DNA of 64,000 nt from an uncultured Chloroflexota bacterium (GCA_903822495.1 CAIJPD010000059.1:7130-71129), one strand, 5' to 3'. Shown: positions 36,649-53,628, counted from the first letter of the stretch. A program made the numbers and translations. Notes: generated by a model from the letters alone, not told the origin.

Positions 36649-36798
36649 GGTCCGCCTTGGGTGTCGCCACCTGCCGCCATCAGCAGGTCGCCGCGTCGGC
36701 GCGGCTGCGGCGCTCACGATCGACTTGCCGAGGGCCTACCCCATCCCGGCGACGGGACTGCCAGAAGCGTGAGCGCGGCCGTGGCGAGGGGGAACCAG

Positions 36799-36822
36799 TG
36801 GCGCCCCCGGACGGATTCGAAC
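36799..36822 (-). mobile_element. tRNA-3'-end-like fragment, candidate distal att site
   Basis: Minus strand GTTCGAATCCGTCCGGGGGCGCCA matches the tRNA-Arg 3' end GTTCGAGTCCCTCCGGGCGCGCCA at 21/24 nt, in the same orientation; similarity stops at the T-loop. Confidence 0.65.
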
Positions 36823-37009
36823 ACGCTCCGCCAACCGCGGTGGTCAAGGGCACGGCCGAGTTCGCGGAGGCGCTTCGCGCCACTTGAACAACTGGCTGGG
36901 CGTGGCGGGTCGCGGGTTGCGGCAAGCACGGACACCGCGAGGCGTACGATCCAGTCAGGCGCCCCGCCGGGGATGGCCGCCGCACCGGAACCATGGAGCC
37001 GCAGGCAAG

Positions 37010-37294
37010 GTGGGCTACCTCCGCTTCCGCCGCCGGGTCCGCCTGGCGCCCGGCATGTACATGAACCTCGGCAAGGGCTCCCTGTCGCTGTCGGTCGGCG
37101 GTCGGGGTCACTGGATCACGTCGGGGACACGCGGGCGCCAGGCCACGGTCGGGATCCCGGGGACCGGGCTCTCGTACACCAGCCGAAGCCACCCGCAACC
37201 GGCCGCCCCTGCGAAGGCGACCGGGACGTCCGCTGGCTGCCTCGGCTGGCTGGTGATCGCCGTCGTGCTCTGGGCGCTGTTCGCCCCGAAGTAG
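37010..37294 (+). CDS. DUF4236 domain protein
   Basis: LRFRRRVRLAPG--MNLGKGSLSLSVG...T-GIPGTGLSY; C-terminal TM. Confidence 0.85.
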   Translation: MGYLRFRRRVRLAPGMYMNLGKGSLSLSVGGRGHWITSGTRGRQATVGIPGTGLSYTSRSHPQPAAPAKATGTSAGCLGWLVIAVVLWALFAPK

Positions 37295-37325
37295 GTCCCG
37301 AGGGCCTGCGGCAGATGCGGGCTCG

Positions 37326-38177
37326 TCAGATGAGACGCGGGCTCCGACGCCCGGCCTGGCGGAGCCCGGCTGCCTCGAGCGCCCGGCGAACGCCGCGTTC
37401 GATCGCCGACGCCACACGGTCGAAGTCGGGGAGCGGCTCGCCGGTGGCCTCGTCGCAGTACAGGCCGCGCCGCGTCTCGAGCATCACGGAGGCGACCCGA
37501 CGGTCCCGCCCGTACCAGCGCAGCGGGACGAGGGAACCCGCGAAGGGTCGGTCGCGCTCGACGGCGAAGCCCTCGGCCGAGAACGACTCGCGGAGCGCCT
37601 CGGTCAGTGCGGCGGGCGTGTGCACGGCGTCGGTCCCCAGGCAGATGTCGGGTCGCCCGGGGCGCTGGTCCGCCTCCGACGGGAGCGGGTGCGTGGCGAA
37701 GGAGTGGCAGTCCAGGACCAGGCAGCGACCGAAGGTCTCGAGCGTCTCGGCGACCAGGGCGGTCAATGCCGCGTGATACGGGACGAAGTAGCGGTCGATC
37801 AGGGCCTGCCGGCCGACGGCGTCGAGCGCGCGGAGCGGCCTCCCGTCGGTCGTCCGGGTGTACACCGCGCCCTGGCCCACGCGAGCCATCGGCTCGTCCG
37901 CGTCGTCGGCGAAGCGCTCGGGGTCGATCACCAGTCGCGAGAGCCCGTTGACGAGCAGGGACGCCCCCAGGTCGGCCGTCCAGCCGTACAACCGGTCCGT
38001 GTGCCAGTCGGTCAGGCTGACCAACTCGCGGGAGAGGTCGGCGTCGTCCAACAGGAGCCGGGCCCGAACCTCGGGCGGGATGCGCGTCGACGAGTGCGGC
38101 ACGTGTGCCACGATCGGTCGACGCCCGACCGATGGCGTGTTGATCCGGAACCCTGCCGGCTCAACCCCGGCTGCCAT
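37326..38177 (-). CDS. N-formylglutamate amidohydrolase family protein
   Basis: HVPHSS, TDWHTD-LY, SRLVIDPERF, YF-PYH, DCHSF, RPDICLG, N/RPFAG, MLE-RR-LY. Confidence 0.88.
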   Translation of the reverse strand: MAAGVEPAGFRINTPSVGRRPIVAHVPHSSTRIPPEVRARLLLDDADLSRELVSLTDWHTDRLYGWTADLGASLLVNGLSRLVIDPERFADDADEPMARVGQGAVYTRTTDGRPLRALDAVGRQALIDRYFVPYHAALTALVAETLETFGRCLVLDCHSFATHPLPSEADQRPGRPDICLGTDAVHTPAALTEALRESFSAEGFAVERDRPFAGSLVPLRWYGRDRRVASVMLETRRGLYCDEATGEPLPDFDRVASAIERGVRRALEAAGLRQAGRRSPRLI

Positions 38178-38304
38178 GGCTACCTACCCTGCGCCGGACT
38201 TCGAGGCAACGTTGCTTCGCGAGCGCCGGCTCAAGTGGACGGTAGCTTGGTCGGGATGCCTCGCGCGCACACCTGCTCGGGCGTGAGCTTGTCGGCGTCG
38301 CGGG

Positions 38305-38646
38305 TCACGGCATCTCGTTGCCCATCGTCACGATGGCGTTGGGGTGGGCCGCGATGTCGCGCACGAGCTCGGCCCGGAAGGCCAGCACGTCGTCGCTCAT
38401 CGGGGCGAACTGCGAAGCTTCGGGCGGGATGTGGAGGAGGACCTCCTTGAGGAGCTGGGCCGCGCCGTCGGCGCCCAGGCCGGCGTTCGGCGGGAACGGA
38501 TACGGCCACGGGTCGCGCGGTGGCCAGGTGGCCGGGTCGAGCGGGTTGGCCCACTCCCCGGGCTTGGGCAGAACCCACTCCGCGGCGGGGGTGGCGGGGG
38601 GTTCGCCGGTGTCGGTGGCGTCGGTGGTGTCGTTGGTGTCGAACAT
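38305..38646 (-). CDS. Hypothetical protein (113 aa)
   Basis: AGGAG RBS; Pro/Trp-rich but non-shadow composition. Confidence 0.6.
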   Translation of the reverse strand: MFDTNDTTDATDTGEPPATPAAEWVLPKPGEWANPLDPATWPPRDPWPYPFPPNAGLGADGAAQLLKEVLLHIPPEASQFAPMSDDVLAFRAELVRDIAAHPNAIVTMGNEMP

Positions 38647-38655
38647 GGCGCGCTC

Positions 38656-38883
38656 CTATGGGCGTTGGTCTACGACAGTCATATCCGCGGAGCCCGAACG
38701 GCCCCCTGGCTCGAGCGCCTTGTCGGTCGGAGGCGGGCCGCCCGTGATGGCCATGGCGGCCTCCCACGAGGCGTCGCCGTACGTGGCAACCCACGCGGGG
38801 TGCAGGCCGGCCTCAATCGACGCCCGCAGCGAGCGATCCTCAATCGACGCGATGAAGTCCTCCTGGCTCGCCCGGTCAGCCAC
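38656..38883 (-). CDS. Hypothetical small protein (75 aa)
   Basis: GGAGG RBS 6 nt upstream of a GTG that overlaps the HD gene stop. Confidence 0.5.
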   Translation of the reverse strand: MADRASQEDFIASIEDRSLRASIEAGLHPAWVATYGDASWEAAMAITGGPPPTDKALEPGGRSGSADMTVVDQRP

Positions 38884-39580
38884 CCGTGTCCTCCCTGTCG
38901 GCGCCAAGGTCCGCCAGCCGGTGCATCTCGCCCACCGTGCGCTCGAGTTCGTCGATGAGCTCGCGCACGGACCGTGGCTTCTGGTGCTGGTTCGCGCGGA
39001 AGCCGTCGACGAGCCCCGCGTAGTAGGCGAGGGTCTCCTCTCGCGGCCCGCTGAACTTCTCCCAGAGCTGCTCGCCGGACACCCGCAGGTCCTTCACGAT
39101 GGAGCGCGCGTTGTACAGCTTGTCCGACGCCGAGACCAGGACAATCGAGGGGCCGGCCGTCACAAGGTGCTCGAGGTAGGCCTCGTGGCGCGCTTCCCGC
39201 GGCGCCCTATTCCCGTCGTCCCCCGGTTCGCCATCCGTACAGCCGACGACGATGGCGAGGACCACCGGGCCGAACGAGACGACCGCCTCCCGGGCGACCC
39301 AGTTCGGGTGGACGTCCTCGAGCACGTCGTGGAGGAGCGCCGCGATGGCCTCGGGCTCGGTCGCCCCGTACTCGCAGGCGATGGAGCACACGCCGAGCGG
39401 GTGGCTGATGTACGGGATGGCCGTGCCCTTGCGCTCCTGGCCCGCGTGCAGCCGGGTGGCGACATCCAGGGCACGGAGCAACTCGGCCGACCCGCCCCAC
39501 AGGACGCGTGTCACCCCGGCGATGACCGCGGTTCCGGCCCATTCCGGAACGGCGTCAGGACTGGCGGCTGATGGCTGCAC
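38876..39580 (-). CDS. HD-domain protein resembling small alarmone hydrolases (SpoT-HD/Mesh1-like)
   Basis: H-GQ-RKG---PYISHP--V, AALLHDVLED, V-GCTD, LVS-SDKLYN; GGAGG before GTG 39580. Confidence 0.85.
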   Translation of the reverse strand: MQPSAASPDAVPEWAGTAVIAGVTRVLWGGSAELLRALDVATRLHAGQERKGTAIPYISHPLGVCSIACEYGATEPEAIAALLHDVLEDVHPNWVAREAVVSFGPVVLAIVVGCTDGEPGDDGNRAPREARHEAYLEHLVTAGPSIVLVSASDKLYNARSIVKDLRVSGEQLWEKFSGPREETLAYYAGLVDGFRANQHQKPRSVRELIDELERTVGEMHRLADLGADREDTGG

Positions 39581-39635
39581 GAGACCTCCAAGTGGTGGTT
39601 GGGATTGCGGTTGATGACGCTGGCCGTCGGGTCGG

Positions 39636-40035
39636 TCAGTCACCGACGCGGTTCCAGAACCCGATGGGAACACCGGCCTCCTTGAGGAACGAGCCCGGGT
39701 CCTTGCCGGGATGGGCGGCGGACCAGGACCGCATGGCGCGGAGCGGGTCCTCTCCCTCGCCTCCACCCAACGCAGCGACCGCCGTCGCGAGTGCGGCCGG
39801 GGCGACCGTCCAGCCCCACTCGTACTCGCGGTTGCCGGCCCCCAAAGAACCGCTCCACCTGCGCCCCCAGGTCCTGGCCGTCGATGACCACGCTCCCGTC
39901 AGCATCGCGGCGTGCATCGAGGCGACTCCGGGTGTCCGGGCCGCGCTCCTCGCGGAGCGAGACGTGGGCGAGCGGACCGGCATCGGGAAGAGCGCGGCGG
40001 TGCCTGGCCCCGGCGGTGCTGGGGTCAGTGGACAT
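39636..40035 (-). pseudogene. Conserved-looking hypothetical gene with +1 frameshift in a G5 run (39839-39843)
   Basis: ...VVIDGQDLGAQVERFFG in one frame continues as AGNREYEWGWTV... in another; removing one G restores a single ORF. Confidence 0.6.
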
Positions 40036-40360
40036 CGTGACCACCCTTCCTGCGCTGGCCGCCTGGGCTCCGGGCCTGCGCGGCGAGGTGCGGCGCCACG
40101 CGTTCGTCGTAGCGCTGGGCCAGGCCTCGGCCACCGGTACGCTCGGCGACGGCCAGGAGCTCGGTGGGCAGGCAGGCCGACGCCATCTGGAACTCCAGGC
40201 CAACGGCCCGGCCGTCCTCGACGCTGAAGTCCAGCGCCACGGCACCGGGGAAGTCCCGGTCATGCTCCAGCAGGAGTGTGGGTCCCAGTGGCTCCCCCGG
40301 CCGCGCCGGGCGCAGCGAGAGGTAGGCGACATCCGTGGTCGCGTCGTACGTGAGGCGCAT
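40025..40360 (-). CDS. DUF2283 domain protein
   Basis: MRLTYD---DVAYLSL...V-LDF...G--VGLE pattern. Confidence 0.8.
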   Translation of the reverse strand: MRLTYDATTDVAYLSLRPARPGEPLGPTLLLEHDRDFPGAVALDFSVEDGRAVGLEFQMASACLPTELLAVAERTGGRGLAQRYDERVAPHLAAQARSPGGQRRKGGHDVH

Positions 40361-40765
40361 GGTCGATCCCCCTGCGGTCGCCCCCGGGCGGGGGCTTGAT
40401 CGACCACGGGGCTCAGGGACCGGTGCGTCGGAGGGTCATCACGGGGCGAGTATGCGCCGGGGTTGTGCCAGCTCTGATGTCACACCGGACGAGCCGGTTC
40501 GCCCGAAATCCGGCTGCAGGTTCCGGCGCGCCCGGAGGGACGTGAGCCCGCACGGACGACAGCCCAACCCCCCGGCCGAGCGGGGTCTCCCGTCCCAGCC
40601 AGCGGGTCCAGGCTCCGCGGTCGATCGCTCGGCTCCAGCCGGGTGGCGGCTCACGTACGGATCAGCCGCAGGGTGACCCCCAAGATCGGCTGGACGACCC
40701 CCCCGATGATTGGCGACAGCCCGTTGAGCGCCCAGGCTCCGTTCATGCCACCGGGTCCGAACACG

Positions 40766-40920
40766 ATCCCGACGTACCGCCCGCGCGTGGTCGGTGCCCA
40801 GGTGACGCAGGCGCTCCAGGCCATCGGCGCCATGGCGATCGAGGGCTCACATGCCTGCGGCCAGACCGAGACGGCGCGACGTGCCGCCCGCAGCCCCCTC
40901 CGGATCGACCGGATGGGGCC
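40766..40920 (+). pseudogene. Degenerate N-terminal fragment of an AAA+ ATP-binding (DUF4143-associated-type) gene
   Basis: YRPRVVGAQVTQALQAIGAMAIEGSHACGQTETARRAARS-LRID resembles YRPR...IEGP(K/R)xCGKT-TAR with a broken Walker A. Confidence 0.5.
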
Positions 40921-41004
40921 CATGACGATGGCGGACGAACCCTGGAAGCGCGCCGCTGTGGTCCCTCCCCGCGCCGTCCGGCTGGAGACGCGGCGCTCGT
41001 GCTG

Positions 41005-41703
41005 CTAGCTGAGCTCGAGCACCAGCGCCACGCCCAGCGCCAGCAGCCAGATCGCCCAGGCCGTGTAGGCGATGGGGACCAGGCGCTCCGCCACCGTCCA
41101 CCCGCGCGGACCCGCCCGCCCAACGAACTCCAGCGAGCCCACGATCAGGGCGGTGCCCAGCAGGAGGCCCAGCCAGCCCAGCAGGTCCGGCGCCGCCGGC
41201 GAGACGATGAGCGCCAGGCCCACGACCGCCGTCCATGCGCCGGTCAACAGGTAGCCGAGGTGCTCGCCGACGGCGACCCCCAGGTACCGGTGCACAGCCT
41301 CGAAGACCAGCGCCACCGTCGCCCGTTCGGCGTCGGACGAGGCCTCGGCGTGCCGGCGTGCCAGCACCGGGACCAGGAACGGCCAGCGCAGCAGGCCCAG
41401 GGCCTGCACGAGGCTGGCGGCGACGCCCATGGCCAGGCTCGTGAGCGCCAGCGACTGGCCGGCGGGCGCCAACTGGACGGCAAGCAGCGCCGACACCGGT
41501 GTCAGCGCGAGGGCAGTGAGCATGAAGGCCCACCACGTGACCACGAGCCGGGTGCCGCCGCTGGTGAACCGGGTCAGGATCTCGCCGGTCTCGCGACGGA
41601 GGATGTCCGGGTAGTCGAACGACCGACCCAGGGCCAGGAAGAGCACGTTGAACGCGATGGGGAGCCCGATCAGGAGCAGGCCAAGGACGACACGCGACTC
41701 CAC
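41005..41703 (-). CDS. DUF4386-family membrane protein
   Basis: FDYPDILR, ALGLLRWPFLVP-LA, GVAVGEHLGY; AAGGAG RBS before GTG 41703. Confidence 0.82.
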   Translation of the reverse strand: MESRVVLGLLLIGLPIAFNVLFLALGRSFDYPDILRRETGEILTRFTSGGTRLVVTWWAFMLTALALTPVSALLAVQLAPAGQSLALTSLAMGVAASLVQALGLLRWPFLVPVLARRHAEASSDAERATVALVFEAVHRYLGVAVGEHLGYLLTGAWTAVVGLALIVSPAAPDLLGWLGLLLGTALIVGSLEFVGRAGPRGWTVAERLVPIAYTAWAIWLLALGVALVLELS

Positions 41704-41877
41704 GGGGCGGCTCCTTCGGGGGCTGGGGCTGGGGCTGCGGCTGGGGCTGCGGCTGGCGCGCTCGTCGAGGGCGGACGCGGGGAGAAGTCTACCGAGGCCG
41801 TGGCCCGGCAGGACACCCACCGTCATGGCCCAGGGCCAACGCGACGCCAGGTGGCCTCCACGACCACCGGCCGCGGG

Positions 41878-42012
41878 TCACGCGTGCCCGGGACCGCCCT
41901 CAGCGGCCACCCTCCGGAGCACCGCCTCGATCATCAGGCAGGCGGCGCCAGCGGCGCGCTCGCGCGCGAACTTCAGCTTCCGAATCAGGACATTCCAGTA
42001 CCGGACTGTCAC
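41878..42012 (-). CDS. Possible 44-aa small protein
   Basis: GAGGAG 7 nt upstream of GTG; sequence MTVRYWNVLIRKLKFARERAAGAACLMIEAVLRRV... Confidence 0.4.
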   Translation of the reverse strand: MTVRYWNVLIRKLKFARERAAGAACLMIEAVLRRVAAEGGPGHA

Positions 42013-42189
42013 TGAAGGCTCCTCGGGACACGGTGCCGTCGGCGCTGGGGGCGCCTCTCGCACTGCCGTTGTTCGGCCCGGCGACGACGAATCGGCAGGG
42101 CCGAATGGCCCGGTTCGTCCGGGTCTGGTGGGGTGCGCGGTGGTCGCGTGCCCGGCCGCCGGCGGTCGGCTGGGGGCTCGCTCGACCCC

Positions 42190-43452
42190 TCACTCGCCGC
42201 TGGTCGTGCTGTCCGAGGCCGCGTTCTCGCGCCGGGCGAGCAGGACCAGCGGCAGCGCCACGACCTGGATGACGGCTGCCACCAGCAACGACGCCGCGTA
42301 GCCGCTGACGTCCGCGACCCGACCCAGGACGGGCTGGGCGACCACGCCCCCGGCCGAGCCCATGAGCGAGTCGAAGGAGAGGACCGTGGCCCGCTGCTCC
42401 GACGGGATGACGCCGTTCAGCAACGCCGAGCGCACGGGCCGGCTGACCGCTGCCACGAAGGACCAGGCCGCCAGCAGCACCAGGGCGACCACGATGCCCT
42501 GGGCGAGCCAGATCAGCGCCAGCGCGCCGCTGCCCAGGAGCGTCCCGGCGATGAGCACATCCGTCCGACGCCGGAACCGGCGAACCAGCCCGGGAACCAT
42601 GAGGCCCGCGGCAATCTGCACCCCGGCCATGATGGCCGATGCCAGGCCGGCGACGCTGTACGCCGTGGGGTCGCCGTAGAGCTGCAGCAGGTACGGCTGC
42701 GCCGCATAGAAGACGTAGATGCCGGTCCCGGCCGTGAGGGGGGCCGCCACCATGAGCCAGCGGACCGGCCGGTTGCGCAGGCCGCCGTCAAGCGAGCCGC
42801 GCAGGACGTTGCGGACGGCGCGTCCGGCGGTCACGTCGCGTGCGGGGGTGAAGCCGATGTCGCGCATGAACCGGAGCGCGACCACCATCGACACACCCAG
42901 CAGGACGGCGCGGATCGCGTACGGCACGCCCGGGTTGGTGGCCTGGGCGATGACGCCACCCGCCACCGTCCCGACCAGCATCGCCGCCCCGCCAACGGCT
43001 TGCGCCCGCCCAAAGACGTGCTCCAGGTGGCCTTCGAACCCGGTCGCGCGGAGCGCGTCCACCAGCCAGGCCTCGGTGGCGCCGGAGAAGAACGTGAAGC
43101 CCAGGCCCAGGAGGACCGACGCGATGGCCCAGCTCCAGAGCGGCGCATGGGCGTCCCACATCGCCAGGTACAGGAGCGTCGCCAGCAGCAGCGTGACCGT
43201 GCCCAGGACGAAGGAGAAGCGGCGCCCGCGGGTGTCGGCCACGATGCCGGTGGGGATCTCGAAGATCACCATGCCCACCGTGAAGAAGGCGTTGGCGGCG
43301 AAGGCCTCGCCGATCGTCAGCCCGGCATCCAGCAGGAAGATGGTGTTGATGCCCCAGATGAACGACGTCGCCAGCGTGGTCAGCAGGGTCAGGACGAGAT
43401 AGGTCCGCTCCACCGCCCGGGCGGGGTCATTCCGTGCGACGGGGGACGCCAT
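42190..43452 (-). CDS. MFS transporter
   Basis: FEIPTGIVADTRGRR, FFSGATEAWLVDAL; 12 TMs. Confidence 0.9.
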   Translation of the reverse strand: MASPVARNDPARAVERTYLVLTLLTTLATSFIWGINTIFLLDAGLTIGEAFAANAFFTVGMVIFEIPTGIVADTRGRRFSFVLGTVTLLLATLLYLAMWDAHAPLWSWAIASVLLGLGFTFFSGATEAWLVDALRATGFEGHLEHVFGRAQAVGGAAMLVGTVAGGVIAQATNPGVPYAIRAVLLGVSMVVALRFMRDIGFTPARDVTAGRAVRNVLRGSLDGGLRNRPVRWLMVAAPLTAGTGIYVFYAAQPYLLQLYGDPTAYSVAGLASAIMAGVQIAAGLMVPGLVRRFRRRTDVLIAGTLLGSGALALIWLAQGIVVALVLLAAWSFVAAVSRPVRSALLNGVIPSEQRATVLSFDSLMGSAGGVVAQPVLGRVADVSGYAASLLVAAVIQVVALPLVLLARRENAASDSTTSGE

Positions 43453-43546
43453 GGCCCGACTCTATCCGAAGCCCCGTCGGTGTGCGATAAGGGGCGACGC
43501 AGCCGGAGCAGTGGCCCGCTCCTGCCGAGCCTTGGGTAGTAGCCGG

Positions 43547-43843
43547 TCAGGCCCTCGCCGGGTTCGACGCCTTGCCGTCCAGCCACAGGGTGTCGCTCTC
43601 GTCGCGGTGCACGCCGTCGCCGCCGACGTGCTTCGAGCCGATCGACGCGCCATTCTTGATGACCTGGACGAGCGCCATCGCATGCCCGCGACCCAGGTCG
43701 AAGTCGCGCTTCAGCCAGTCCACGATGACACCCGCCTTGGTCGACGGTTCGTCGTACCCGAGCTCCCTGGCGAGGGTGACCAACTCGCGCGGCGTCTTGC
43801 CCGTCTTGTCCTCGATGCTGTCGAGGTGGGCCTGGAACGACAT
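43547..43843 (-). CDS. DUF4287 domain protein
   Basis: MSFQA-LD-IE-KTGK...WLK-DF-LGRGHAMAL. Confidence 0.88.
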   Translation of the reverse strand: MSFQAHLDSIEDKTGKTPRELVTLARELGYDEPSTKAGVIVDWLKRDFDLGRGHAMALVQVIKNGASIGSKHVGGDGVHRDESDTLWLDGKASNPARA

Positions 43844-43920
43844 CCCCTTCTCCTCGCGGCACTCCGATCGCTCGAAACCCTGGCAGGCAAGTGGGCGCCC
43901 GGGGCGACAGCGTCCCCGGT

Positions 43921-45036
43921 TCACGCCGTGACGAGCACCCCCTCGTCCCTGGCGGGGACGGCCGCGCCGGCCAGGACGGCCTCCAGGGCGTCGGCCCCGC
44001 CGACCGCCCCGGGCGCCGAGCGGACGCTCGCACCCAGGCGAGCCGCGGCCGCGCGGTGCGGGCCGTCCGCGAGCAGCGTCCCCACGGCCGCACCGATCGC
44101 GTCCGGGCGGGCCTTCGGCGCGACCAGGCGGCCGGCGCCGAAGCGCTCGATGCTGCGCCCAACGAGACGGTGGTCCGCCTTCGTGTCCAGCGGCAACACG
44201 ACCACCCCAGCGTCGTGGGCCAGGGCCCGCATCGCCGTCCCGTGGCCGCCGTGCCCCAGCACGACGCTCGTGTGCGGCATCAGCTCATCGTGCGGGACGA
44301 CGCGGTGCACCTCGACGCCGGCGGGCACCCGCAGCGATGCCGGGTCGATGTGCGGACCGGTCGTGACGACGATCCGGGCGGGGAGCCCGACGCAGCCGTC
44401 GATCGCGTCCTGCAGTCGCTTCCCCATGCCCGAATAGCCGAAGGTGCTCAGGCTCACCAGGACGGTGGGCTCGCCGGGCTCGCGGGGTTTCCACGTCACG
44501 ATGGGGCCGACCTGGCTGACGGGCGCCCCGGGTCGGACGCGGTCCAGCTCCGGCAGGCTCGTCACGACCCGCACGGCGGCGTCGCGCAGGGACCGTGCAG
44601 GGCGCAGGCCGCGGGCGCGAATGACGAGCCCGAGGGGTCCGCTCAGCGCGCCCTGGTAGTACTCGTCGAAGAAGTGCTCGAGCACGGCATACCGCACCCC
44701 GCTCTCCCGGGCGGCATCCAGGGCGCCCAGCTGCAGGGCGTCAACAAGCACGAGGTCCGCCGGGCGTCGGCCGAGCTCCGCCAGCAGGTCCCGGCCCATC
44801 CCCTTGTCGCCGAACGTGGCAAGGAGCTCCGGCAGGCTGTGGTCGGCCCCCGCCCGGAAGTCGCGCGCCTCAGGCGCTGCGACGGGGGTGAATCCGGCCG
44901 CCTCGATCGCGTCGCGCTGCGCGCGGTGCCCGAGCACCCGGATCCTGTGCCCGCGATCCGCGAGCTCGGTGGCAATGGCGAAGGCGGGCGGCACGTTGCC
45001 ACCTCCGTCCCATGTGACGACGACGATCTCGGCCAT
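43921..45036 (-). CDS. GT1-family (UDP/macrolide-type) glycosyltransferase
   Basis: WDGGGNVPP, VPHDEL, HGGHGT, P---D donor-binding region. Confidence 0.88.
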   Translation of the reverse strand: MAEIVVVTWDGGGNVPPAFAIATELADRGHRIRVLGHRAQRDAIEAAGFTPVAAPEARDFRAGADHSLPELLATFGDKGMGRDLLAELGRRPADLVLVDALQLGALDAARESGVRYAVLEHFFDEYYQGALSGPLGLVIRARGLRPARSLRDAAVRVVTSLPELDRVRPGAPVSQVGPIVTWKPREPGEPTVLVSLSTFGYSGMGKRLQDAIDGCVGLPARIVVTTGPHIDPASLRVPAGVEVHRVVPHDELMPHTSVVLGHGGHGTAMRALAHDAGVVVLPLDTKADHRLVGRSIERFGAGRLVAPKARPDAIGAAVGTLLADGPHRAAAARLGASVRSAPGAVGGADALEAVLAGAAVPARDEGVLVTA

Positions 45037-45122
45037 GACGACTCCTGCGGCGGTAGGTGGGTTGAAGGGACGCCCCGGGCGCGGGGGTGTGGGATTGCCT
45101 GCGTCACGCAGGAGGGCCTGCG

Positions 45123-45713: not shown

Positions 45714-45721
45714 GTCAACGC

Positions 45722-45751
45722 ACAGTAACGCCAAAGTGATATTCGTGTCAA
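45722..45751 (-). promoter_or_regulatory. Sigma70-type promoter of the tetR-glycosyltransferase operon
   Basis: Minus strand TTGACA-N18-TACTGT, 8 nt before the ATG. Confidence 0.55.
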
Positions 45752-45935
45752 CGGCGAGTCATGCGAAGATCGCGTCCTGGCTGGCGCCAGCTGCATTGCG
45801 CGCCGTTCTCGGCCCTCGGAGCCGGAGGGCGGACTTCCGGTTGGCCGTCGTGCCAAGGCTCGAGCCAGGTTGAGAGACCCGGACCAGGGCACCGACGGGC
45901 GGGGCGAGCCTGGCAGCGCCGACGCTGCCGCGTCG

Positions 45936-46352
45936 TCAGCCGGGGATCATCCCGAGCTGCTGCGCCAGGCCGAAGATGTCGGTGGTGTCCCACTCCTCCG
46001 CGACCCGACCATCGGCCACCCGGCGGATGTACGTCCCGGTCAGCACGATCGGCTTGCCGGTCGCCGGCACGCCCATGTAGGCACCCTGGTGGGTGAAGCG
46101 GTTGGTCCAATGAACGCCGACCTTGTCGCCCTCCACGATGACCGGCGCGAACGTCATCACCATGTCCGGGAAGGCCGCCGTGAGGCCGGTCATGAACCCG
46201 ACGTAGCCGTCACGGTCCAGCTCGGTCCCGGCGGCCCCGTGGTACTGGAAGCCTGGGGCGAGCAGGTCGTCATGGAGCGCCGCGAACTCCCGCGCGGCGA
46301 TGGCTCGGGAGACGTTCAGGGCGGCTTCCTGGGTGGCTTCTCGGTCGGACAT
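45936..46352 (-). CDS. SnoaL-like ester cyclase (NTF2 fold)
   Basis: AFPDM, EGDKV, THQGAYMGVPATGK, DGRVAEEW; GAGGAG RBS. Confidence 0.9.
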   Translation of the reverse strand: MSDREATQEAALNVSRAIAAREFAALHDDLLAPGFQYHGAAGTELDRDGYVGFMTGLTAAFPDMVMTFAPVIVEGDKVGVHWTNRFTHQGAYMGVPATGKPIVLTGTYIRRVADGRVAEEWDTTDIFGLAQQLGMIPG

Positions 46353-46411
46353 GGCGGCTCCTCGCGTGGCTGTGGTTGGTTGAGACCTGAGCATCGGCTG
46401 CCACTCTCTAT

Positions 46412-46442
46412 TTGACAAGTACGCACTATCAGGTGCGATACT
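46412..46442 (+). promoter_or_regulatory. hxlR promoter overlapping an inverted repeat (candidate operator)
   Basis: TTGACA at 46412, TGcGATACT extended -10 ending 6 nt before ATG; AGTACGCAC-N6-GTGCG(A)TACT inverted repeat. Confidence 0.55.
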
Positions 46443-46448
46443 CTCCAG

Positions 46449-46880
46449 ATGGAAAGCCCAGACTTCGTCGATATCGCCCTCGACGACCCGCCCACCACCT
46501 ACCAACTGCACGACCGGGTCTACTACTGCCCGGTGAACCTCGCGATCGAGGCGATCACCGGCAAGTGGAAGACGCTCATCCTGTGGCAGCTCACGTTGCA
46601 CGGCAGCGTGCGCTACGGGGGGCTCAAGCGAGCCATCCCCGGGATCACCCACAAGATGCTCGTCCAGTCGCTCCGTCAGCTCGAGACGGACGATCTCATC
46701 GAGCGCCACGTCTTCGACGTGGTGCCGCCCCACGTCGAATACCGGCTGAGCCCGGAGGGCCGACGCCTGGAGCCCGTCCTGCGCGCGCTCGAGCAGTTCG
46801 GCGAGCGCTACGCGGCGACCCACGGTGACGGTCCGGGCATTGGCGCGGTGGGCGAGCGCTCCGACATCTGGCCAGCGTAG
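46449..46880 (+). CDS. HxlR-family winged-helix regulator
   Basis: CPV---IE-I-GKWK-LIL, IPGITHKML-QSLR-LE-D, VPPHVEY-LS. Confidence 0.92.
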   Translation: MESPDFVDIALDDPPTTYQLHDRVYYCPVNLAIEAITGKWKTLILWQLTLHGSVRYGGLKRAIPGITHKMLVQSLRQLETDDLIERHVFDVVPPHVEYRLSPEGRRLEPVLRALEQFGERYAATHGDGPGIGAVGERSDIWPA

Positions 46881-46889
46881 GGTTCGGGC

Positions 46890-47561
46890 ATGCGACTCCG
46901 CCTGCGTCGGGGCAAGCCCACCGAGACCAGCCGACTGGAGGCATTCAGCGACGGCGTCTTCGCGGTCGCGATCACGCTGCTGGCGCTGGATCTGGCACGC
47001 ATCCACGCCGACTCAGGGGCGGTCCCGCCGGTGACCCTGTTTGACTCCCTGCGAACCGGGTGGCCGACGCTGCTGGCCTTCGGCGGGGCCTTTGCCTTCG
47101 TGGGCATCGCCTGGACGAACCACCACAACGTCTTCGTCCGCGTGAAGTCGATCTCGAGATCGATCAACGGCGCAAACCTCATCCTCCTCGCGGCCGTCGC
47201 GATGGTGCCGTGGGCGACGTCCGCACTGGCCGATGGTCTGGTCGACAACGCCGACGAAGCGAGCCGCCAGGCGATGCTCCTGTACGCCGCGGTCACGGGG
47301 TTTGGTGCGTTGACCTGGGGCTTGTTGTTCCAGATCCTGTCATCCAACCCCGACCTTCTCGAGGACCCGCTCAGCGCCCATCAGTTCGCGGCGGACCGAG
47401 TGGGAACCGTCATGGGGCTGACGCTCCTGACGGTCGCCACAGCCGTGGGCTACATCTGGTCGCCGCTCATCGGCTCCGTGCTCCTGTTGCTGATCCCGGT
47501 GATCTTCGCGGTCGCCTCCGAGGGGTTTGAGCGCACTGGTTCCCCCGGGACAGCCGCCTGA
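46890..47561 (+). CDS. TMEM175-family (DUF1211) K+ channel-like protein
   Basis: SRLEAFSDGVFAVAITLL and W-NHH motifs. Confidence 0.88.
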   Translation: MRLRLRRGKPTETSRLEAFSDGVFAVAITLLALDLARIHADSGAVPPVTLFDSLRTGWPTLLAFGGAFAFVGIAWTNHHNVFVRVKSISRSINGANLILLAAVAMVPWATSALADGLVDNADEASRQAMLLYAAVTGFGALTWGLLFQILSSNPDLLEDPLSAHQFAADRVGTVMGLTLLTVATAVGYIWSPLIGSVLLLLIPVIFAVASEGFERTGSPGTAA

Positions 47562-47704
47562 CTCATCCGGTTTGCAGGCCCTGCGGAGGCGCCCTCGGGT
47601 TGGCCCTCGCGGTTGGGAGGCGGCCCCGTCCAACGGCGGCCTCACCGTCGGACGGCCGCGGCCAATGCCCCGAGACCTGCAGGCGTGGGCCTCCGACGCG
47701 ACCC

Positions 47705-48409
47705 CTACAACCCGGAATCTGCGGTGGAACGCAGGTAGGCGATGACCTCGTCGAGCGGGATGACGTCTGCGTACTTCTGTTCCAGATCGAACAGGTTCAA
47801 GGCGTGCGTGGCCTCATGCCGATCGAACACGCACTCCTCCGGGATGACCATCTTGAGACGGCTCGTCTTGCCGTCCACGACCGACGCGCGCACGCACCCG
47901 CTCGTCGATTCGCCCGCCACGATCACCGTGTCCACGCCGAGGCCGGTCAGGACCCCGGCGAGCGGGGTCCCCCAGAACGCGCTGGGCGCCGATTTGAGGA
48001 TCGTCATCTCCCCGGGGATGGGGGCCACCTCGTCGATGATCTGATTGCCCCTCGCGCGTCGCGCCCGCAGCTCCGGCGCGTCGACGGCATTGCCGCGGAG
48101 CACGCCGTCGTTCCAGCTCGGCACGCTCTCGAGCGTCGTCGTGTGGATCACCGGGATCCCCAGCCGACGTGCCTCCGCGAGGAGCCGTTGGATGTGGGGG
48201 AGGGCGTCCCAGCCAGCCATCCCGCAGCTGCTCGGCCAGGTCTCGATCGCCTCCATGAGGGGCTCCGGCTTGTCCCCGAACACCCAGCGGTAGAGGTCAA
48301 CCAGCAGGAGGGCCGGCCGCTTGCCGACCCCCATGCGGGCCGCCGGGAGCCGCCCGACGTGCTGCCGGTCCTGATCGGTCAGGAACCGGTCCCAGACTCG
48401 CTCGGCCAT
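47705..48409 (-). CDS. Isochorismatase-family cysteine hydrolase (maleamate/N-carbamoyl amidase-like)
   Basis: LLLVD, K---SAFWGT, GESTSGCVRASVVD, ECVFDR. Confidence 0.9.
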   Translation of the reverse strand: MAERVWDRFLTDQDRQHVGRLPAARMGVGKRPALLLVDLYRWVFGDKPEPLMEAIETWPSSCGMAGWDALPHIQRLLAEARRLGIPVIHTTTLESVPSWNDGVLRGNAVDAPELRARRARGNQIIDEVAPIPGEMTILKSAPSAFWGTPLAGVLTGLGVDTVIVAGESTSGCVRASVVDGKTSRLKMVIPEECVFDRHEATHALNLFDLEQKYADVIPLDEVIAYLRSTADSGL

Positions 48410-49516
48410 CTACGGCCAGCCGATCTCGGTGTTGAAGCCCAGATCCTTGAGCTTGTTGAGGTAGGACATGTCGCCGACGACCCCGAGATCGACGTCCTTC
48501 ACCGCGGGGCTGACAGTCGCCAGGATGTCGCGGTTGAGCGCGAAGTCGTCCTTGGTGAAGCCGAATCCCTTGTTGCAGAGCCCGGCCAGACACTGGTCGA
48601 GGGAAGCCTTCGCGACCGTGGCATCGACGGTCGTGTACGCCTGGAACGCCGTCACGGCCAACGGCGTCTTGGTGAACATCGCCTTCTGTGCCTCGAGCTG
48701 CGCGGCGATGATCCGAAGGATCGTGTTTGGGTTCTTGGCGGCCCATGCCTTCGTCAACGTCAGGCCGTCGATCCCGAACCGCACTCCCGACTTCGTGAGG
48801 TCCACCAGCACGTTGTAGCCCAGGGCCTGCAGTTTGGGGACGCCGGTGGTGCTGACCGGTGCGCTGGCGACGGCACCGCTCACCATCGCGGCGATCTGGG
48901 AGGCCTCGTTGCCGATGCCCTGGATGATCACGTCGGACGCCTTGAGGCCCAGCTGACTGAGCGAGGCCACCACGGCGGCGTGCGACACACCGCCCAGGCT
49001 GCTGATCGCGATGGACTTGCCCTTCAGGTCGGCGCCCGTCTTGATGTCCTTGCCGCCCATCAGCATGTAGGCGAGGTAGTTGGACTCCATGGTGGCCATG
49101 ATCAGCGGAGAATCGGTCAGCGCCGCCGACAGGACATTGCCCGGCCCCGTCAGGGCGGCCTGGATCTGGCCGGCCAGGAGGCTCTGGAGCGCGGCCCCCG
49201 CGCCCTCCATCGAAAGGACCTTGACCGTCAGGCCGTACTTCTGGAACAACCCAATGTCATTGGCCAGCTGGCTGGGGTACTGGTTGATCGCCAGGTTGTT
49301 GGTGACGCCGATCGTGATGGTCGTGGTCTCGGCGGGCGGGAGGACGACCGGCGTGGCGGCCGCGGCGGAAGCAGCGGCGGATGCGGCCGACGTGGGCGGC
49401 GCGGCCGACGGGGCGGAGGGCGCGGGTGTGGCCCCGGACGTGCAGGCCGTCGCGATCAGCGAAACAGCCAGGAGCAGGGCCGTGCCCGGCACGGGGCGCG
49501 AGAGGATCCGGGTCAC
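48410..49516 (-). CDS. ABC substrate-binding lipoprotein, NMT1/THI5 type, 368 aa
   Basis: Lipobox IATAC; IKTGADLKGKSIAIS; GGAGG RBS; abuts the isochorismatase start. Confidence 0.85.
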   Translation of the reverse strand: MTRILSRPVPGTALLLAVSLIATACTSGATPAPSAPSAAPPTSAASAAASAAAATPVVLPPAETTTITIGVTNNLAINQYPSQLANDIGLFQKYGLTVKVLSMEGAGAALQSLLAGQIQAALTGPGNVLSAALTDSPLIMATMESNYLAYMLMGGKDIKTGADLKGKSIAISSLGGVSHAAVVASLSQLGLKASDVIIQGIGNEASQIAAMVSGAVASAPVSTTGVPKLQALGYNVLVDLTKSGVRFGIDGLTLTKAWAAKNPNTILRIIAAQLEAQKAMFTKTPLAVTAFQAYTTVDATVAKASLDQCLAGLCNKGFGFTKDDFALNRDILATVSPAVKDVDLGVVGDMSYLNKLKDLGFNTEIGWP

Positions 49517-50121
49517 GTGAAACCTCCGTTTGCGCCGCCTGCGGGGTGGCCGGCCAGCTGGGCTGAAGGCCAGGCGGCTCGCGGGAGAGCTGGGTCAGCG
49601 TGCGCGCGGCGGTGTCAAGGCGAAATCCATATGGCCACAGTGGGCAGTTTTCGAGCAGGTCCCGGCGCACGGTGGCAGGTAGACGGCGAGGTGGATCGTG
49701 GGCCGCTCGAGCCTGTCGCCGTACGACGGGCCCCGCGCGGCCGGCCGAACTGGCGGTAGATGTCGGTGGCATCGCTCTCGTCCCAGAGCTGCGCGATCGA
49801 GTGCTCTGCCGGTGAGGCAGGGGGCAACCAGCGCAGCCGCGTCCGCGCGGTCGCGGCTGTCTCCGTCCCCTGCTGGCCTCGCGCCGCTTCCGGGCGAAGA
49901 GGACCCTCTCCGCGATGGGCTACGAGAGTATCGTTCGCTCACGCAGCTCACCGGCGTGCACGCGATGCGATCTCGCGGTCGTCATCCTCGCTGGCGGGCT
50001 CGGCGGTGCGGGACGCCTCTCGAGGACGGACGTGGAACAGCTGACGCACGGCCAACCTTCTGGCCCCGGGCGGCCCCGGCGATCGTGGGTCGCTGGCGGT
50101 ACGGCGGGCGGCAGCCACGCC

Positions 50122-53100
50122 ATGGACAGGCCGTACCAGGGGTTCTTGCCGGTCGCCCTGATCATCGCCCTGATCGCGGCGCTGCGTGTCTCCGTCGATC
50201 CCTCCGTCTTCTACGACCCGGGTTGGCTGATCCCGGTCACCAACACCCTGTTCGTGACCCTGACGTCGTTGGCCGTCGCCTACGTCGCCCTGCGTCACTT
50301 CACGGCGACGGGACGGAGCCAGATCCTCCTCCTGGGTTGCGCGACGCTGGTCTTCGGGCTCGCGGCCGCCTGTGCCGCATTCGCACGGGGTCTCCCGGAC
50401 GGCGCGAACCAGAACGTGACGATCTACAACACCGGCGCCCTGTCCGCGGCGCTCCTCTACGGGGTCTCCGCCATGGCCCTCCTGGCAGGGCGGTCCCCGA
50501 CGGTGGCGACGGCCCGGAGGGGACCCCTGGTCCTCGCCGGCTATGCGACGGCCCTGGCCTTCACGACGGTCCTCACCGTGGCCGCCCTTCTTGGCGCTAC
50601 CCCGCCCTTCTTCATCCAGGGAACCGGTCCGACACTGCTGCGGCAGGGCGTCCTCGGGGCCGCGGACGTGCTGTTCGTCTTCTCGGCGCTGATCTTCGTC
50701 GGCACGTCCTTCAGGACCCGGGAGCCGTTCCTGTACTGGTACGGCCTGGGCCTGGCCCTGACCGCCGTGAGCCTGTCCGCGTTCTTCATCCAGAGCTCGG
50801 TCGGCAGTCCGGTCGGATGGGCGGGAAGGGCCTCGCAGTACCTCGGCGGGCTGTACCTGCTGGTCGCCCTCGTGGCGGCCAGGTCGGCCGCGCACGAGCG
50901 GAAGGCGTCGCTCGACAGCGTCCTGACCTTCTCCCTGGACACCGCGGCGGGACGAGCCTCGGCAGCCGGAGAGGAGTCGGCGGACGCGGCTGGCCGGATG
51001 GACCGCGACTTGCGGCATGTCTACCTCGAGCAGTCCGCGGACGCCTTCTACGCGAAGGACGCCCAGGGCCGCTACCTGCTGTTCAACAGCGAGGCGGCCC
51101 GGGCCACCGGCAAACTGCCCCACGAGGTCATCGGCAGGGACGACACCTTCCTCTTCCCTGCCTCTCAAGCCGCGTCGATCATGGCCGGCGATCGGGAGGT
51201 GATGGAAGGCCGCCGCGTCGTGACCTACGAGGAGGTCCTGGAGACGGTCGCCGGAGCGACGACGTACCTGGCGACCAAGGGCCCGCTGTTCGACGACAAC
51301 GGGAAGGTCGTCGGGCTGTTCGGTTTCGCCCGCGACGTCACCGAGCAGAAGCGCGCGGAGGCGGCGCTGTACAAGAGCGAGGAGCGCTTCCGCTCAACCC
51401 TCGACCAGATGCTCGAGGGAGCGATGATCATCGGCTTCGACTGGCGGTACCTCTACGTCAACGATGTCGCAGCAAGCCACGGTCGCACCGTGCCTGACGA
51501 CATCATCGGCCGGTCGATGCCCGAGGTGTATCCGGGGATCGAGGGGAGCGAGGTCTTCGGTCGCTACCGAGAGGCCATGGAAGGGCGAGTGCCCCAGCGC
51601 TTTGACGCGCCATTCACGTTCGCCGACGGCACCACGAGCCACTACCACTTCAGCGTCGAGCCCGTCGCCGAGGGGATCTTCGTGTTCTCCGCCGACATCA
51701 CCGAGCGCAAGGCTGTCGAGGAGGCGCTCCGCGAGTCCGAGGAGCGATTCCGCGCGCTTGTGGAGTCGGCCAACGACGCCATCTTCATCTGGGACAGGGA
51801 GAGCCTGCGCTGCCTCGAGGCCAATCGGGCCGCCTGCAAGCGCCTGGGCTACACGCGGGCCGAGCTGCTGACAATGACCGTGGCCCAGATCAGCGCCCCG
51901 GAGCAGGCCGCGGCCATCGCGGCTCGCGCAGCTGAGATCGGGGAGCGAGCCTCGGCCCTCGTCGAGACGGTCCACCTGGCGCGGGACGGCACCCGGATCC
52001 CGGCAGAGGTGAGCACCACGGTCGCCAATCTCGGCGGCCGCCCGGTATTCCTCTCGATCGCGCGCGACGTCACCGAGCGCAAGCAGGCCGAGGCGGCGAG
52101 GGCCTCCCTCGAGGCCCAGCTCGCCCAGGCCGAGAAGATGGAGTCGGTGGGCCGCCTGGCCGGCGGCGTGGCCCACGACTTCAACAACATGCTGGGCGTG
52201 ATCCTGGGCAACGCCGAGCTCGCTCTCGAGGCGCTCGAACCTTCGCATCCCGTCCGTGCCGATCTCCTTGAGATCCAGGGCGCCGCGATGCGCTCCGCCG
52301 ACCTCACCCGCCAGCTGCTCGCCTTCGCCCGTCGCCAGACGGTGGCGCCCAGGCCCCTCGACCTCAACGAGGCCGTAAGCGGGATGCTCGACATGCTCCG
52401 GCGCCTCAACAGCGCCGGCGTCGAGCTCGCCTGGAGGCCGGGCGCCGGCCTGTGGCCGGTCCGGGTGGACCCGTCCCAGCTCGACCAGATCCTGACCAAT
52501 CTCGTGGTGAACGCGGGTGACGCGGTCGGCGACACCGGCAAGATCACGGTCGAGACCGGGAATGCCACGCTCGACGCGGAGTTCTCCGCCACCCTGTCGG
52601 GCGCCGTGCCCGGTGACTACGTGGGGCTGACCGTGCGCGACGACGGGGGCGGCATGGACGCCGAGACGATGAACCACCTCTTCGAGCCGTTCTTCACGAC
52701 CAAGGAGGCCGGCCGCGGGACAGGCCTCGGCCTGGCCACGGTGTACGGGATCGTCCAGCAGAACGGGGGCTTCATCGACGTCTCCAGCGAACCGGGAGCC
52801 GGGTCCGTGTTCCGGATCTGGCTGCCGCGCCACCGGGGTCCGGCGGCCGCGCCGGAGGCGCCCACGCAGCACGTTGCGCGCGGAGGCGGCGAGACGGTCC
52901 TGCTCGTCGAGGATGAGCCCGCGCTCCTGCGCCTGGCCACCGTGATGCTCGAACGGCTGGGCTATCAAGTGGTTGCCGCCGCCACCCCCGGCGAGGCATC
53001 CCGGCTGGCCAGGGAGCATCAGGGCCAGATCCACCTGCTGATGACCGATGTCGTCTTGCCCGGGATGAACGGCCGGGATCTCGCCCGGAACCTGCAGCCG

Positions 53101-53286
53101 CTCTACGCCGGCCTGCGCTGCCTGTTCATCTCGGGTTACACCGCCGACGTGATCGCCGACCACGGGCTCCTGGACGTGGGCGTCCACTTCCTCCAGAAGC
53201 CGTTCTCCGCGCGGAACCTGGCGGCCAGGGTTCGCGAGGCGCTCGACCACGACCCCGTGTCGCCCGACCCGGTGTCGGCGGGCTGA
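50122..53286 (+). CDS. Hybrid sensor histidine kinase (membrane sensor + 3 PAS + HisKA/HATPase + REC)
   Basis: About 7 TMs, three PAS/PAC, AHDFNNML, NAGDA, DDGGGM, FEPFFTTK, GTGLGL, LLVEDE...TDVVLP...KPF. Confidence 0.93.
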   Translation: MDRPYQGFLPVALIIALIAALRVSVDPSVFYDPGWLIPVTNTLFVTLTSLAVAYVALRHFTATGRSQILLLGCATLVFGLAAACAAFARGLPDGANQNVTIYNTGALSAALLYGVSAMALLAGRSPTVATARRGPLVLAGYATALAFTTVLTVAALLGATPPFFIQGTGPTLLRQGVLGAADVLFVFSALIFVGTSFRTREPFLYWYGLGLALTAVSLSAFFIQSSVGSPVGWAGRASQYLGGLYLLVALVAARSAAHERKASLDSVLTFSLDTAAGRASAAGEESADAAGRMDRDLRHVYLEQSADAFYAKDAQGRYLLFNSEAARATGKLPHEVIGRDDTFLFPASQAASIMAGDREVMEGRRVVTYEEVLETVAGATTYLATKGPLFDDNGKVVGLFGFARDVTEQKRAEAALYKSEERFRSTLDQMLEGAMIIGFDWRYLYVNDVAASHGRTVPDDIIGRSMPEVYPGIEGSEVFGRYREAMEGRVPQRFDAPFTFADGTTSHYHFSVEPVAEGIFVFSADITERKAVEEALRESEERFRALVESANDAIFIWDRESLRCLEANRAACKRLGYTRAELLTMTVAQISAPEQAAAIAARAAEIGERASALVETVHLARDGTRIPAEVSTTVANLGGRPVFLSIARDVTERKQAEAARASLEAQLAQAEKMESVGRLAGGVAHDFNNMLGVILGNAELALEALEPSHPVRADLLEIQGAAMRSADLTRQLLAFARRQTVAPRPLDLNEAVSGMLDMLRRLNSAGVELAWRPGAGLWPVRVDPSQLDQILTNLVVNAGDAVGDTGKITVETGNATLDAEFSATLSGAVPGDYVGLTVRDDGGGMDAETMNHLFEPFFTTKEAGRGTGLGLATVYGIVQQNGGFIDVSSEPGAGSVFRIWLPRHRGPAAAPEAPTQHVARGGGETVLLVEDEPALLRLATVMLERLGYQVVAAATPGEASRLAREHQGQIHLLMTDVVLPGMNGRDLARNLQPLYAGLRCLFISGYTADVIADHGLLDVGVHFLQKPFSARNLAARVREALDHDPVSPDPVSAG

Positions 53287-53372
53287 CCGGCCGCCGGGCT
53301 GACCGGCCGGCGGGCACGCATCTTCTCGCGCCGTCTCGCTCCCCGCGCCGTGAGCCGGCCGCGAACCGGGCG

Positions 53373-53590
53373 GCGGAGCGGCTGCGGGTGCTGGCGGACA
53401 CGTGGGTGCGCGTCGATGTCCCGGCAGCCAGGGCGGACCTGTCGCGCGCGATCTACGACGGCATCGTCGTCGGAGTCGGTCGGTCATCGCGGCTCGCCGG
53501 ACGCCGGCCGTCCATGCGAGCGGTCCGGTCCGGTCAGTTTGTGCTTGGGAAATGGCGCGCCCGGAGGGACTCGAACCCCCGACCCTCTGA
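53373..53590 (+). pseudogene. Probable C-terminal relic of a large serine recombinase reading into the tRNA antisense strand
   Basis: LRVLADTWVRVDVPAARADLSRAIYDGIVV in one frame, then SVIAARRTPAVHASG...EMARPEGLEPPTL* in another. Resemblance to recombinase tails is recalled, not searched. Confidence 0.45.
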
Positions 53591-53628
53591 TCCGAAGTCA
53601 GATGCTCTATCCGCTGAGCTACGGGCGC
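53553..53628 (-). tRNA. tRNA-Arg (anticodon UCG)
   Basis: 76 nt, acceptor GCGCCCG/CGGGCGC, D-arm AGCTCAGCGGATAGAGC, anticodon loop CT-TCG-GA, GGTTCGAGTCC, encoded CCA; TATGAT upstream. Confidence 0.97.

Follow-up and report, generated by a model that had tools for sequence, protein, structure and literature searches.

The 64,000-nucleotide stretch of DNA analysed here, called the window throughout, comes from an uncultured Chloroflexota bacterium (GCA_903822495.1, CAIJPD010000059.1:7130-71129), and this study concerns the region to the left of its tRNA-Arg(UCG) gene. This region is probably an old, composite and immobile island that was built by integrative elements of a single clade of large serine recombinases (LSRs), a clade common in Candidatus Limnocylindrales. 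The reading draws on the homology of a gene relic and of a C-terminal tail, on attP-form proteins, on arrays of junctions and on synteny, which were all observed, and from these I infer an order of events.

In the proposed history, the LSR gene would lie at one end of the element and read towards the tRNA, with its last codons crossing the attachment core. The protein of the integrated state would end in a few residues taken from the antisense of the tRNA 3' end (...MARPEGFEPPTI, then the stop), and once the element is free (the attP form), the same open reading frame (ORF) would run on into a conserved tail of ~20 residues (...MARPEGFEHTPPTIVIEGVEELVEALRAA, then the stop). Integration would leave this tail at the opposite end of the integrated element, beside the displaced tRNA 3' fragment. 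Integration would have been serial, each newcomer at the regenerated tRNA pushing older elements outward, and later deletions would have removed all mobility genes and let ordinary cargo stay. The remnants in the window would then be a tRNA-proximal gene relic (53341-53590), an inner junction (40524-40547), and an outer, tail-coding junction (36798-36887).

A recombinase relic beside tRNA-Arg(UCG)

The tRNA-Arg(UCG) gene, the presumed attachment target, was called by ARAGORN on the minus strand at 53553-53628, with its 3' end at 53553. A plus-strand frame reads through the antisense of this gene and ends ...CAWEMARPEGLEPPTL, with its stop at 53588-53590, and at the far end of the region the frame of 36798-36887 reads VAPPDGFEHAPPTAVVKGTAEFAEALRAT up to its stop; a preliminary description of this DNA had quoted both frames, and both were present as described. 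The first of them closes a stretch on the plus strand, 53341-53590, which by its homology is the frame-broken relic of an LSR gene comprising the last ~70-90 codons, and hence a gene fragment and not a recombinase. Its frame is broken near 53472-53475, with more small indels, and it reads into the tRNA antisense as ...MARPEGLEPPTL.

Searching the genome by tblastn with the intact 490-aa LSR of the relative G309 gave a match at 53316-53513 to residues 400-464 (59% over 66 aa, E=2e-11), and a second match in another frame at 53471-53587 to residues 452-490 (49% over 39 aa, E=4e-5). At the DNA level, similarity to the G309 gene sets in sharply at 53341, and the final 213 nt of that gene match at ~80% with four small indels. 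The relic lacks some 400 codons, and a histidine kinase gene stops 55 nt upstream of it. The earlier proposal that 53373-53552 is a frameshifted LSR relic was therefore right by both the protein and the DNA comparison. Of the two fragments that it had singled out for a search against LSRs, the relic matches intact LSRs, and the far-end frame corresponds to the C-terminal tail of the same clade.

LSRs are recognised by an N-terminal resolvase catalytic domain with a nucleophilic serine and by homology to the C-terminal part of established members. The catalytic domain was not found in the window, PF00239 being unmatched on contig C59, and C-terminal homology is what the relic has. Pfam gave no matches on the relic and tail ORFs. 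A BLASTP comparison of the relic peptide with the intact LSR on contig C51 of the same genome returned nothing (E>6), because the C51 enzyme is too distant (40% identity to the clade of the relic), and the homology emerged only when clade members taken from relatives were used. Directly downstream of tRNA-Arg(UCG), the DNA was unconserved in G001, which is of the same genus, and 81% identical, tRNA included, in G023, which is of another genus; G023 has kept a similar relic, with a short ORF that ends ...LLHAIYDRIVVAGRSTVAARLTPAAYSNGLALALPQVVKARPEGLEPPTLW within the tRNA antisense.

Large serine recombinases at tRNA-Arg genes of relatives

A six-frame search with the C-terminal peptide of G023 matched 163 of the 301 family genomes, and many of the matches lay in open frames of 485-530 aa. 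Two intact members (490 and 509 aa) matched the Pfam Resolvase profile PF00239 with E values of 1e-11 and 2.5e-12, and reached 17-18 bits with the Recombinase profile PF07508, which is under its cut-off of 21.1; no PDB match to the clade was found by sequence at E<=1e-3. Judged by these domains, the intact 490-520-aa homologues are predicted LSRs. Among species-representative genomes, 87 relatives were detected, nearly all labelled Chloroflexota or Chloroflexia, and many of them Candidatus Limnocylindrales or Limnocylindria. Over 60 loci, the gene abuts tRNA-Arg(CCG) at 33, tRNA-Arg(UCG) at 3 and tRNA-Arg(UCU) at 2, with no tRNA at the other 22. Every tRNA-abutting clade gene converges on the tRNA-Arg and stops inside its 3' end. 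A search of 40 kb by 24-mer and 12-16-mer repeats did not find the distal end of the G309 element.

Outside the window, the same genome holds an apparently intact element of 5.9 kb at a tRNA-Pro(CGG) gene (C51:451-6426). Its serine recombinase, the C51 enzyme, has 486 aa (509-1966, minus strand) and a stop codon that falls within the tRNA; a Rep_trans initiator lies at 2157-3293, and the tRNA end recurs as a 17-nt direct repeat at 6410-6426. When the element was excised in simulation, the protein grew from 486 to 510 aa and its terminus changed from ...GERI to ...GERSSADTLRV... before the stop.

A C-terminal tail and genes of the attP form

The far-end peptide, GEGEPVAPPDGFEHAPPTAVVKGTAEFAEALRAT, matched the 301 family genomes with E values down to 1e-7, over nearly its full length, in short open frames from many genera. 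Eleven relatives align with the window across the tRNA-like 24-mer and ~63 further bases, with the same length and the same stop position. In the stand-alone junctions of these relatives the consensus of the tail is PEGFEHTPPTIVIEGVEELVEALRAA, then the stop, with small variations, and the pairwise differences among the 11 tails fall on codon positions 1/2/3 as 198/135/423. Such an excess at third positions is consistent with sequence that has been kept, or recently inherited, as coding. In the window, the corresponding stretch is the plus-strand frame at 36798-36887, which would be the element-side (P') arm and codes the C-terminal tail of the clade, ...FEHAPPTAVVKGTAEFAEALRAT, up to the stop.

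The same tail was also found attached to integrase genes. The junction in G153 is uninterrupted (...ALALPRVVMARPEGFEHTPPTIVIEGVEELIEALRAA, then the stop) and reads LALALPRVVMARPEGFEHTPPT...RAA before the stop; a contig of G201 holds a clade integrase, cut by the contig end, that finishes ...LALALPEKVEMARPTGFGSAAPTLAVGGVAELVAVLRAA on a contig with no tRNA; and the 4.3-kb contig L092 holds a complete integrase of 521 aa ending ...MARPTGVGHALTTYRIPIEGRDEWVAAAQVRSA, again with no tRNA. Integrated copies end in ...EPPT(I/L) inside the tRNA, the shared ...PEGFE being followed by some four residues read from the tRNA, whereas free copies have ~20 further residues. Because the tail occurs on full-length or uninterrupted integrase ORFs without a tRNA, the clade ORF does span its own attachment site, and the tail-bearing, tRNA-less genes are its attP forms. 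Sequence comparison thus finds the different C-termini of integrated and free copies that an attP-spanning layout entails, and the idea, put forward in the preliminary description, of a gene that spans attP and changes its C-terminus on integration holds for the family, as the attP-form proteins and their tails indicate.

Two junctions in the window and synteny with a congener

Fragments of the tRNA 3' end, on the tRNA strand, sit 13.0 and 16.7 kb from the intact tRNA-Arg(UCG). The outer fragment had been reported before as a 24-nt copy of the tRNA end, 21/24 identical and on the tRNA strand, 16.7 kb away, and it is indeed there: it lies at 36799-36822 on the minus strand, and the plus strand of this interval, TGGCGCCCCCGGACGGATTCGAAC, agrees at 21/24 positions with the antisense of the 3' end of the local tRNA-Arg(UCG). 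The 24-mer was then compared with the 52 tRNA calls of the source assembly, a lake-water Chloroflexota (Limnocylindrales) genome of 3.6 Mb and 72% G+C. It is not a copy of the local tRNA, as had been assumed, but an exact 24/24 match to the 3' end of tRNA-Arg(CCU) at C67:34314-34337 (blastn-short, E=1.4e-8). Allowing up to three mismatches, the 24-mer has three sites in the 3.6-Mb assembly, namely the fragment itself, the tRNA-Arg(CCU) on C67 and the local tRNA. The view that the distal copy derives from attP is not supported either: at distal junctions of the family the tRNA-like arm comes from the displaced host end, and the element contributes the tail-coding side only.

Scanning for shorter matches to the end of the local tRNA revealed a closer repeat that the preliminary description had missed. 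At 40524-40547, on the same (minus) strand as the tRNA, an exact 17/17 copy of the tRNA-Arg(UCG) 3' end is followed by an element-side arm of a second type (CGTGAGC.CGCA). A junction pattern derived from G001 matched the window at 40.5 kb with 0 mismatches, where shuffles expect 0.04 matches. The inner flank of this junction, CGTGAGCCCGCA, matches the flank of the G001 junction, which is itself preceded by another integrase-tail relic, and it resembles a junction in G022 that bounds a one-gene island of 1.35 kb; junctions of both G001 and G022 have the same arm motif. The cognate same-strand tRNA 3' fragment that belongs to the Islander signature of a far boundary is therefore present at 40524-40547, and not at 36799-36822.

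Window DNA was present in lake-water metagenome runs, and per-run assemblies of these runs span both places, three of them covering 36.0-37.8 kb and one covering 40.3-42.4 kb; the junctions are therefore not peculiar to one assembly, and mis-assembly is unlikely since independent contigs cross them. The per-run contigs were built at a word depth of 5-10 with rare variants dropped, and the excision or circle joints seen in them had sides of 20-24 nt and were unreliable.

These results bear on whether there is any element history here at all. It is very improbable that the 24-mer and the frames arose by chance in an ordinary chromosome of 72% G+C. High G+C does yield many long spurious ORFs, and the genes of the interval are all ordinary metabolic or regulatory ones, but an exact 24-mer at E=1.4e-8, the homology of the relic to LSRs at E=2e-11, a tail whose length, stop position and codon pattern are conserved in 11 genomes, and the shuffle expectation for the inner junction together refute an explanation by chance only.

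Comparison with the congener G001 placed the junctions among blocks of different history. Counterparts of 16.8-27.6 kb, 40.95-43.88 kb and 53.55 kb onward lie on G001 contig C3 in the same order, and the tRNA-Arg(UCG) with its right flank is collinear at 84-91% identity. The middle block (40950-43879), with DUF4386 and MFS genes, matches G001:C3:271762-274265 and 276173-276544 at 88-92%, with its order and its orientation to the tRNA kept, and being collinear it is older than the split of the two genomes. For the stretches 27.6-40.95 kb and 43.88-53.55 kb, G001 offers nothing collinear, just matches of 67-81% on its other contigs, and the integrase relics of the two genomes do not align as DNA. 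In G001 itself, a frame-broken integrase-tail relic with an attP-like junction, in which identity to the tRNA ends after 16 nt, is located 1.5 kb from tRNA-Arg(UCG) (L036:17740-19713), and a lone NmrA/SDR-like gene stands between this junction and the tRNA. An ARAGORN call of tRNA-Arg(acg) in G001 (L036:11752-11838) was set aside, as it has no similarity to the attachment sequences and looks like a false positive.

Arrays of junctions were found in other relatives as well. G132 has an integrase remnant (an open frame of 334 aa) and three junctions, which lie 10.4, 12.1 and 16.4 kb away from its tRNA-Arg(UCG) and the outermost of which bears the tail, and G253, G205 and G190 each have two or three junctions beside tRNA-Arg(UCG). 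Several junctions at one tRNA-Arg(UCG) are thus usual among the relatives, which fits serial integration.

The preliminary description had drawn the region as one element of 16.7 kb in tRNA-Arg(UCG), running from 36799 to 53552, with the joining of its ends restoring the C-terminus of the integrase. Its geometry is right, in that both ends share one strand and the tail-coding arm points inward; the relic and the tail are of one LSR clade, and tails of this type are joined to UCG-type arms in 11 relatives. The tail-bearing junction of G132, 16.4 kb from a tRNA-Arg(UCG) and an LSR and with inner junctions between, even makes a composite element with inner relics conceivable. A single element is nevertheless unlikely here, as the tRNA-like arm is that of tRNA-Arg(CCU) at all 24 positions and misfits the 5' stems of the local tRNA, the cognate 17/17 junction intervenes at 40.5 kb, and the collinear block at 40.95-43.88 kb has a core-like identity to G001 whereas the relics cannot be aligned as DNA, so that the block would predate the last integration.

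The CCU-type arm of the outer junction

All 11 relatives join the tail to a UCG-type arm, TGGCGCGCCCGGAGGGATTCGAAC, and the arm in the window differs from it at two positions, both of which have the CCU bases. An exact-pattern scan of JGI metagenome contigs found the UCG-arm junction in 82 contigs and the CCU-arm junction in 0. The preliminary description had itself named an exact match to another tRNA-Arg, with unrelated flanks, as a result that would tell against it; the exact match is there, but the flank is the tail of the clade.

This arm is the first of several points that weigh against serial integration at tRNA-Arg(UCG), which does not predict it and leaves the CCU type unexplained. 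A remnant of a tRNA-Arg(CCU) body was not found in the window, and the nitroreductase gene of the left flank is not a neighbour of tRNA-Arg(CCU) in 40 relatives. The subclade that targets tRNA-Arg(UCG) yielded no intact element with both ends mapped. Finally, the DUF4386-MFS block is outside the junction relic of G001 but inside the 40.5-kb junction here, and this difference in position requires at least one further rearrangement or independent event.

It is possible, although I hold it with some reserve, that the outer junction goes back to an off-target or alternative integration into a tRNA-Arg(CCU) gene, be it a former local copy, a copy borne on an older island or one in a donor genome, and that its partner was deleted or the junction arrived with the 27.6-40.9 kb block. 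The clade does use several tRNA-Arg isoacceptors (CCG, UCG and UCU), the CCU and UCG ends differ at just 2-3 of 24 positions, a rare event would agree with the metagenome counts of 0 and 82, and the junction lies within a block of 13 kb that is missing from G001. On the other hand, neither a tRNA-Arg(CCU) body nor a second integrase relic was found nearby, a different and more distant LSR relic lies beside the resident tRNA-Arg(CCU) on C67, and no clade member was found at a CCU tRNA among the 60 loci. An off-target integration into a CCU gene, with that gene since lost or the junction imported with the 13-kb genome-specific block, would thus be a plausible source of the arm.

On C67 (34262-35106), the tRNA-Arg(CCU) is followed by this relic, a frame-broken remnant of a distant serine recombinase that also reads into the tRNA (...LLLAPPDGFEPPTHALG...), with 31% identity to the clade over 118 aa. 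C67 stops 769 nt past the tRNA and shares its final 141 nt with the end of C68, which indicates a branch in the assembly graph. In G001, the DNA downstream of tRNA-Arg(CCU) corresponds to contig C3 of the window genome and not to the window. An inversion between the two tRNA-Arg islands was ruled out, since the two sides of the region are collinear with G001 and the tRNA end on C67 is purely of the CCU type. A paralogue of the nitroreductase (43%) lies at C45:176681-177592, between tRNA-Arg(GCG) and a tRNA-Ser, and a similar paralogue in G001 (C6:26102-26776) adjoins a tRNA-Arg-like sequence; their orientation is unlike that in the window, and their position beside tRNA-Arg is probably coincidence.

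Comparison with known integrases and tRNA islands

The clade resembles known large serine integrases (phiC31, Bxb1, A118/LI and SPbeta SprA) in the size of its intact members (490-520 aa), in their N-terminal resolvase domain and weak Recombinase match, and in the position of the gene at the tRNA-proximal element end beside short attachment sites. It differs from them in that it targets tRNA-Arg 3' ends, its ORF crosses its own attP with a swapped C-terminus, and no solved structure was found by sequence; of such an enzyme the window keeps the last ~70-90 codons only. A gene that spans attP, so that integration alters or removes the C-terminal part, is known from Mx8 IntP/IntX and from SSV-type integrases, which are tyrosine recombinases of another chemistry, whereas the clade consists of serine recombinases and the part swapped is a conserved tail of ~20 residues. 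The target of Mx8 is a tRNA gene. The paper on Islander describes some integrases (Mx8, SSV) as extending across attP, and states that only tyrosine-family integrases were known to target tRNA genes (PMC4383910).

Like the islands and tandem arrays in tRNA genes that Islander finds, the region has an intact tRNA and same-strand 3' fragments, several to one tRNA; unlike them, it would have been built by a serine integrase, no member here keeps its integrase, and the outer fragment is from another isoacceptor. The C51 element is comparable with small actinomycete elements of the pSAM2 type, having an integrase and a Rep_trans initiator at a tRNA with a 17-nt direct repeat, but its integrase is a serine recombinase. 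In the literature searched, no serine integrase was described at tRNA genes or with an attP-spanning ORF.

Tyrosine integrases classically land in tRNA genes, and here an abundant serine-integrase clade of Limnocylindrales appears to target tRNA-Arg and to lose a conserved tail on integration. As serine integrases are prized for genome engineering, a change of the enzyme that is encoded in the DNA and made by integration would be worth testing. That the tail has a function is something I infer. In its strongest form, which is a long shot, the ~20-residue tail EHTPPTIVIEGVEELVEALRAA could be a working part made only by the free circular element, which integration detaches and stores at the far end, leaving a tail-less enzyme of different activity or directionality, and the outer junction with its CCU-type arm would record that the enzyme once used a neighbouring isoacceptor. 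If this were true, the tail switch would be a self-contained commitment switch in a family of serine integrases that target tRNA-Arg. The window itself holds fossils of the family only. Its variable region by tRNA-Arg(UCG) would be explained as a fossil array, with the island boundaries proposed earlier corrected, and tRNA-end fragments need to be compared with every isoacceptor before the limits of an island are set.

Gene content and mobility of the island

Genes were called by third-position G+C in this 72% G+C genome and then scanned with Pfam. The outermost segment, 36823-40523, would be an older part of the island and has no mobility gene; it encodes a DUF4236 protein, an N-formylglutamate amidohydrolase, a 113-aa ORF, an HD_4 protein and a DUF2283-like protein, and it is missing from G001 at the DNA level. 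DUF4236, the neighbour of the tail, was considered as part of the element backbone and rejected, being absent from 15 junction-bearing genomes. Beyond the DUF4386-MFS block, 43880-53340 is genome-specific cargo with an EryCIII-like glycosyltransferase, TetR, SnoaL, HxlR, TMEM175, isochorismatase, an NMT1-type binding protein and a hybrid histidine kinase of 1123 aa (49915-53286). Sliding G+C was 0.67-0.69 at ~45.5-49.5 kb and 50.5-52 kb, compared with 0.72-0.75 around them.

Between 36.8 and 53.5 kb, gene calls and Pfam found no gene for replication, transfer or excision and none for a recombinase, and a six-frame search of the whole genome with the Resolvase, Recombinase and Phage_integrase profiles gave zero matches on contig C59. 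An integrase gene inside the island, another part of the Islander signature, is therefore lacking, and the ~250-nt relic is what remains. Since the contig has no recombinase domain, the island is unable to move by itself; the preliminary description had offered immobility or dependence on a trans-acting recombinase, and the part that stands is that the island is not self-mobile.

Some of the genes have duplicates elsewhere. The hybrid histidine kinase gene (49845-53299) has a 78-84% paralogue at C51:7258-11507, just past the far end of the tRNA-Pro element, and its last 1.2 kb have an 81% paralogue on another G001 contig. Both kinase paralogues of the window genome adjoin serine-integrase sites, which may be coincidence or may reflect old cargo. 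The DUF2283-like gene and its upstream sequence (40017-40483) are duplicated at 89% at C22:87354-87821, with the similarity ending 40 nt before the 40.5-kb junction.

To the right of the island, ARAGORN called a tRNA-Ala(CGC) at 57631-57727 that, at 97 nt, is far above the normal length of a tRNA-Ala. Further over-long tRNA calls were made on C22, C25, C31, C58 and C51, and these may be false positives or tRNAs that bear insertions.

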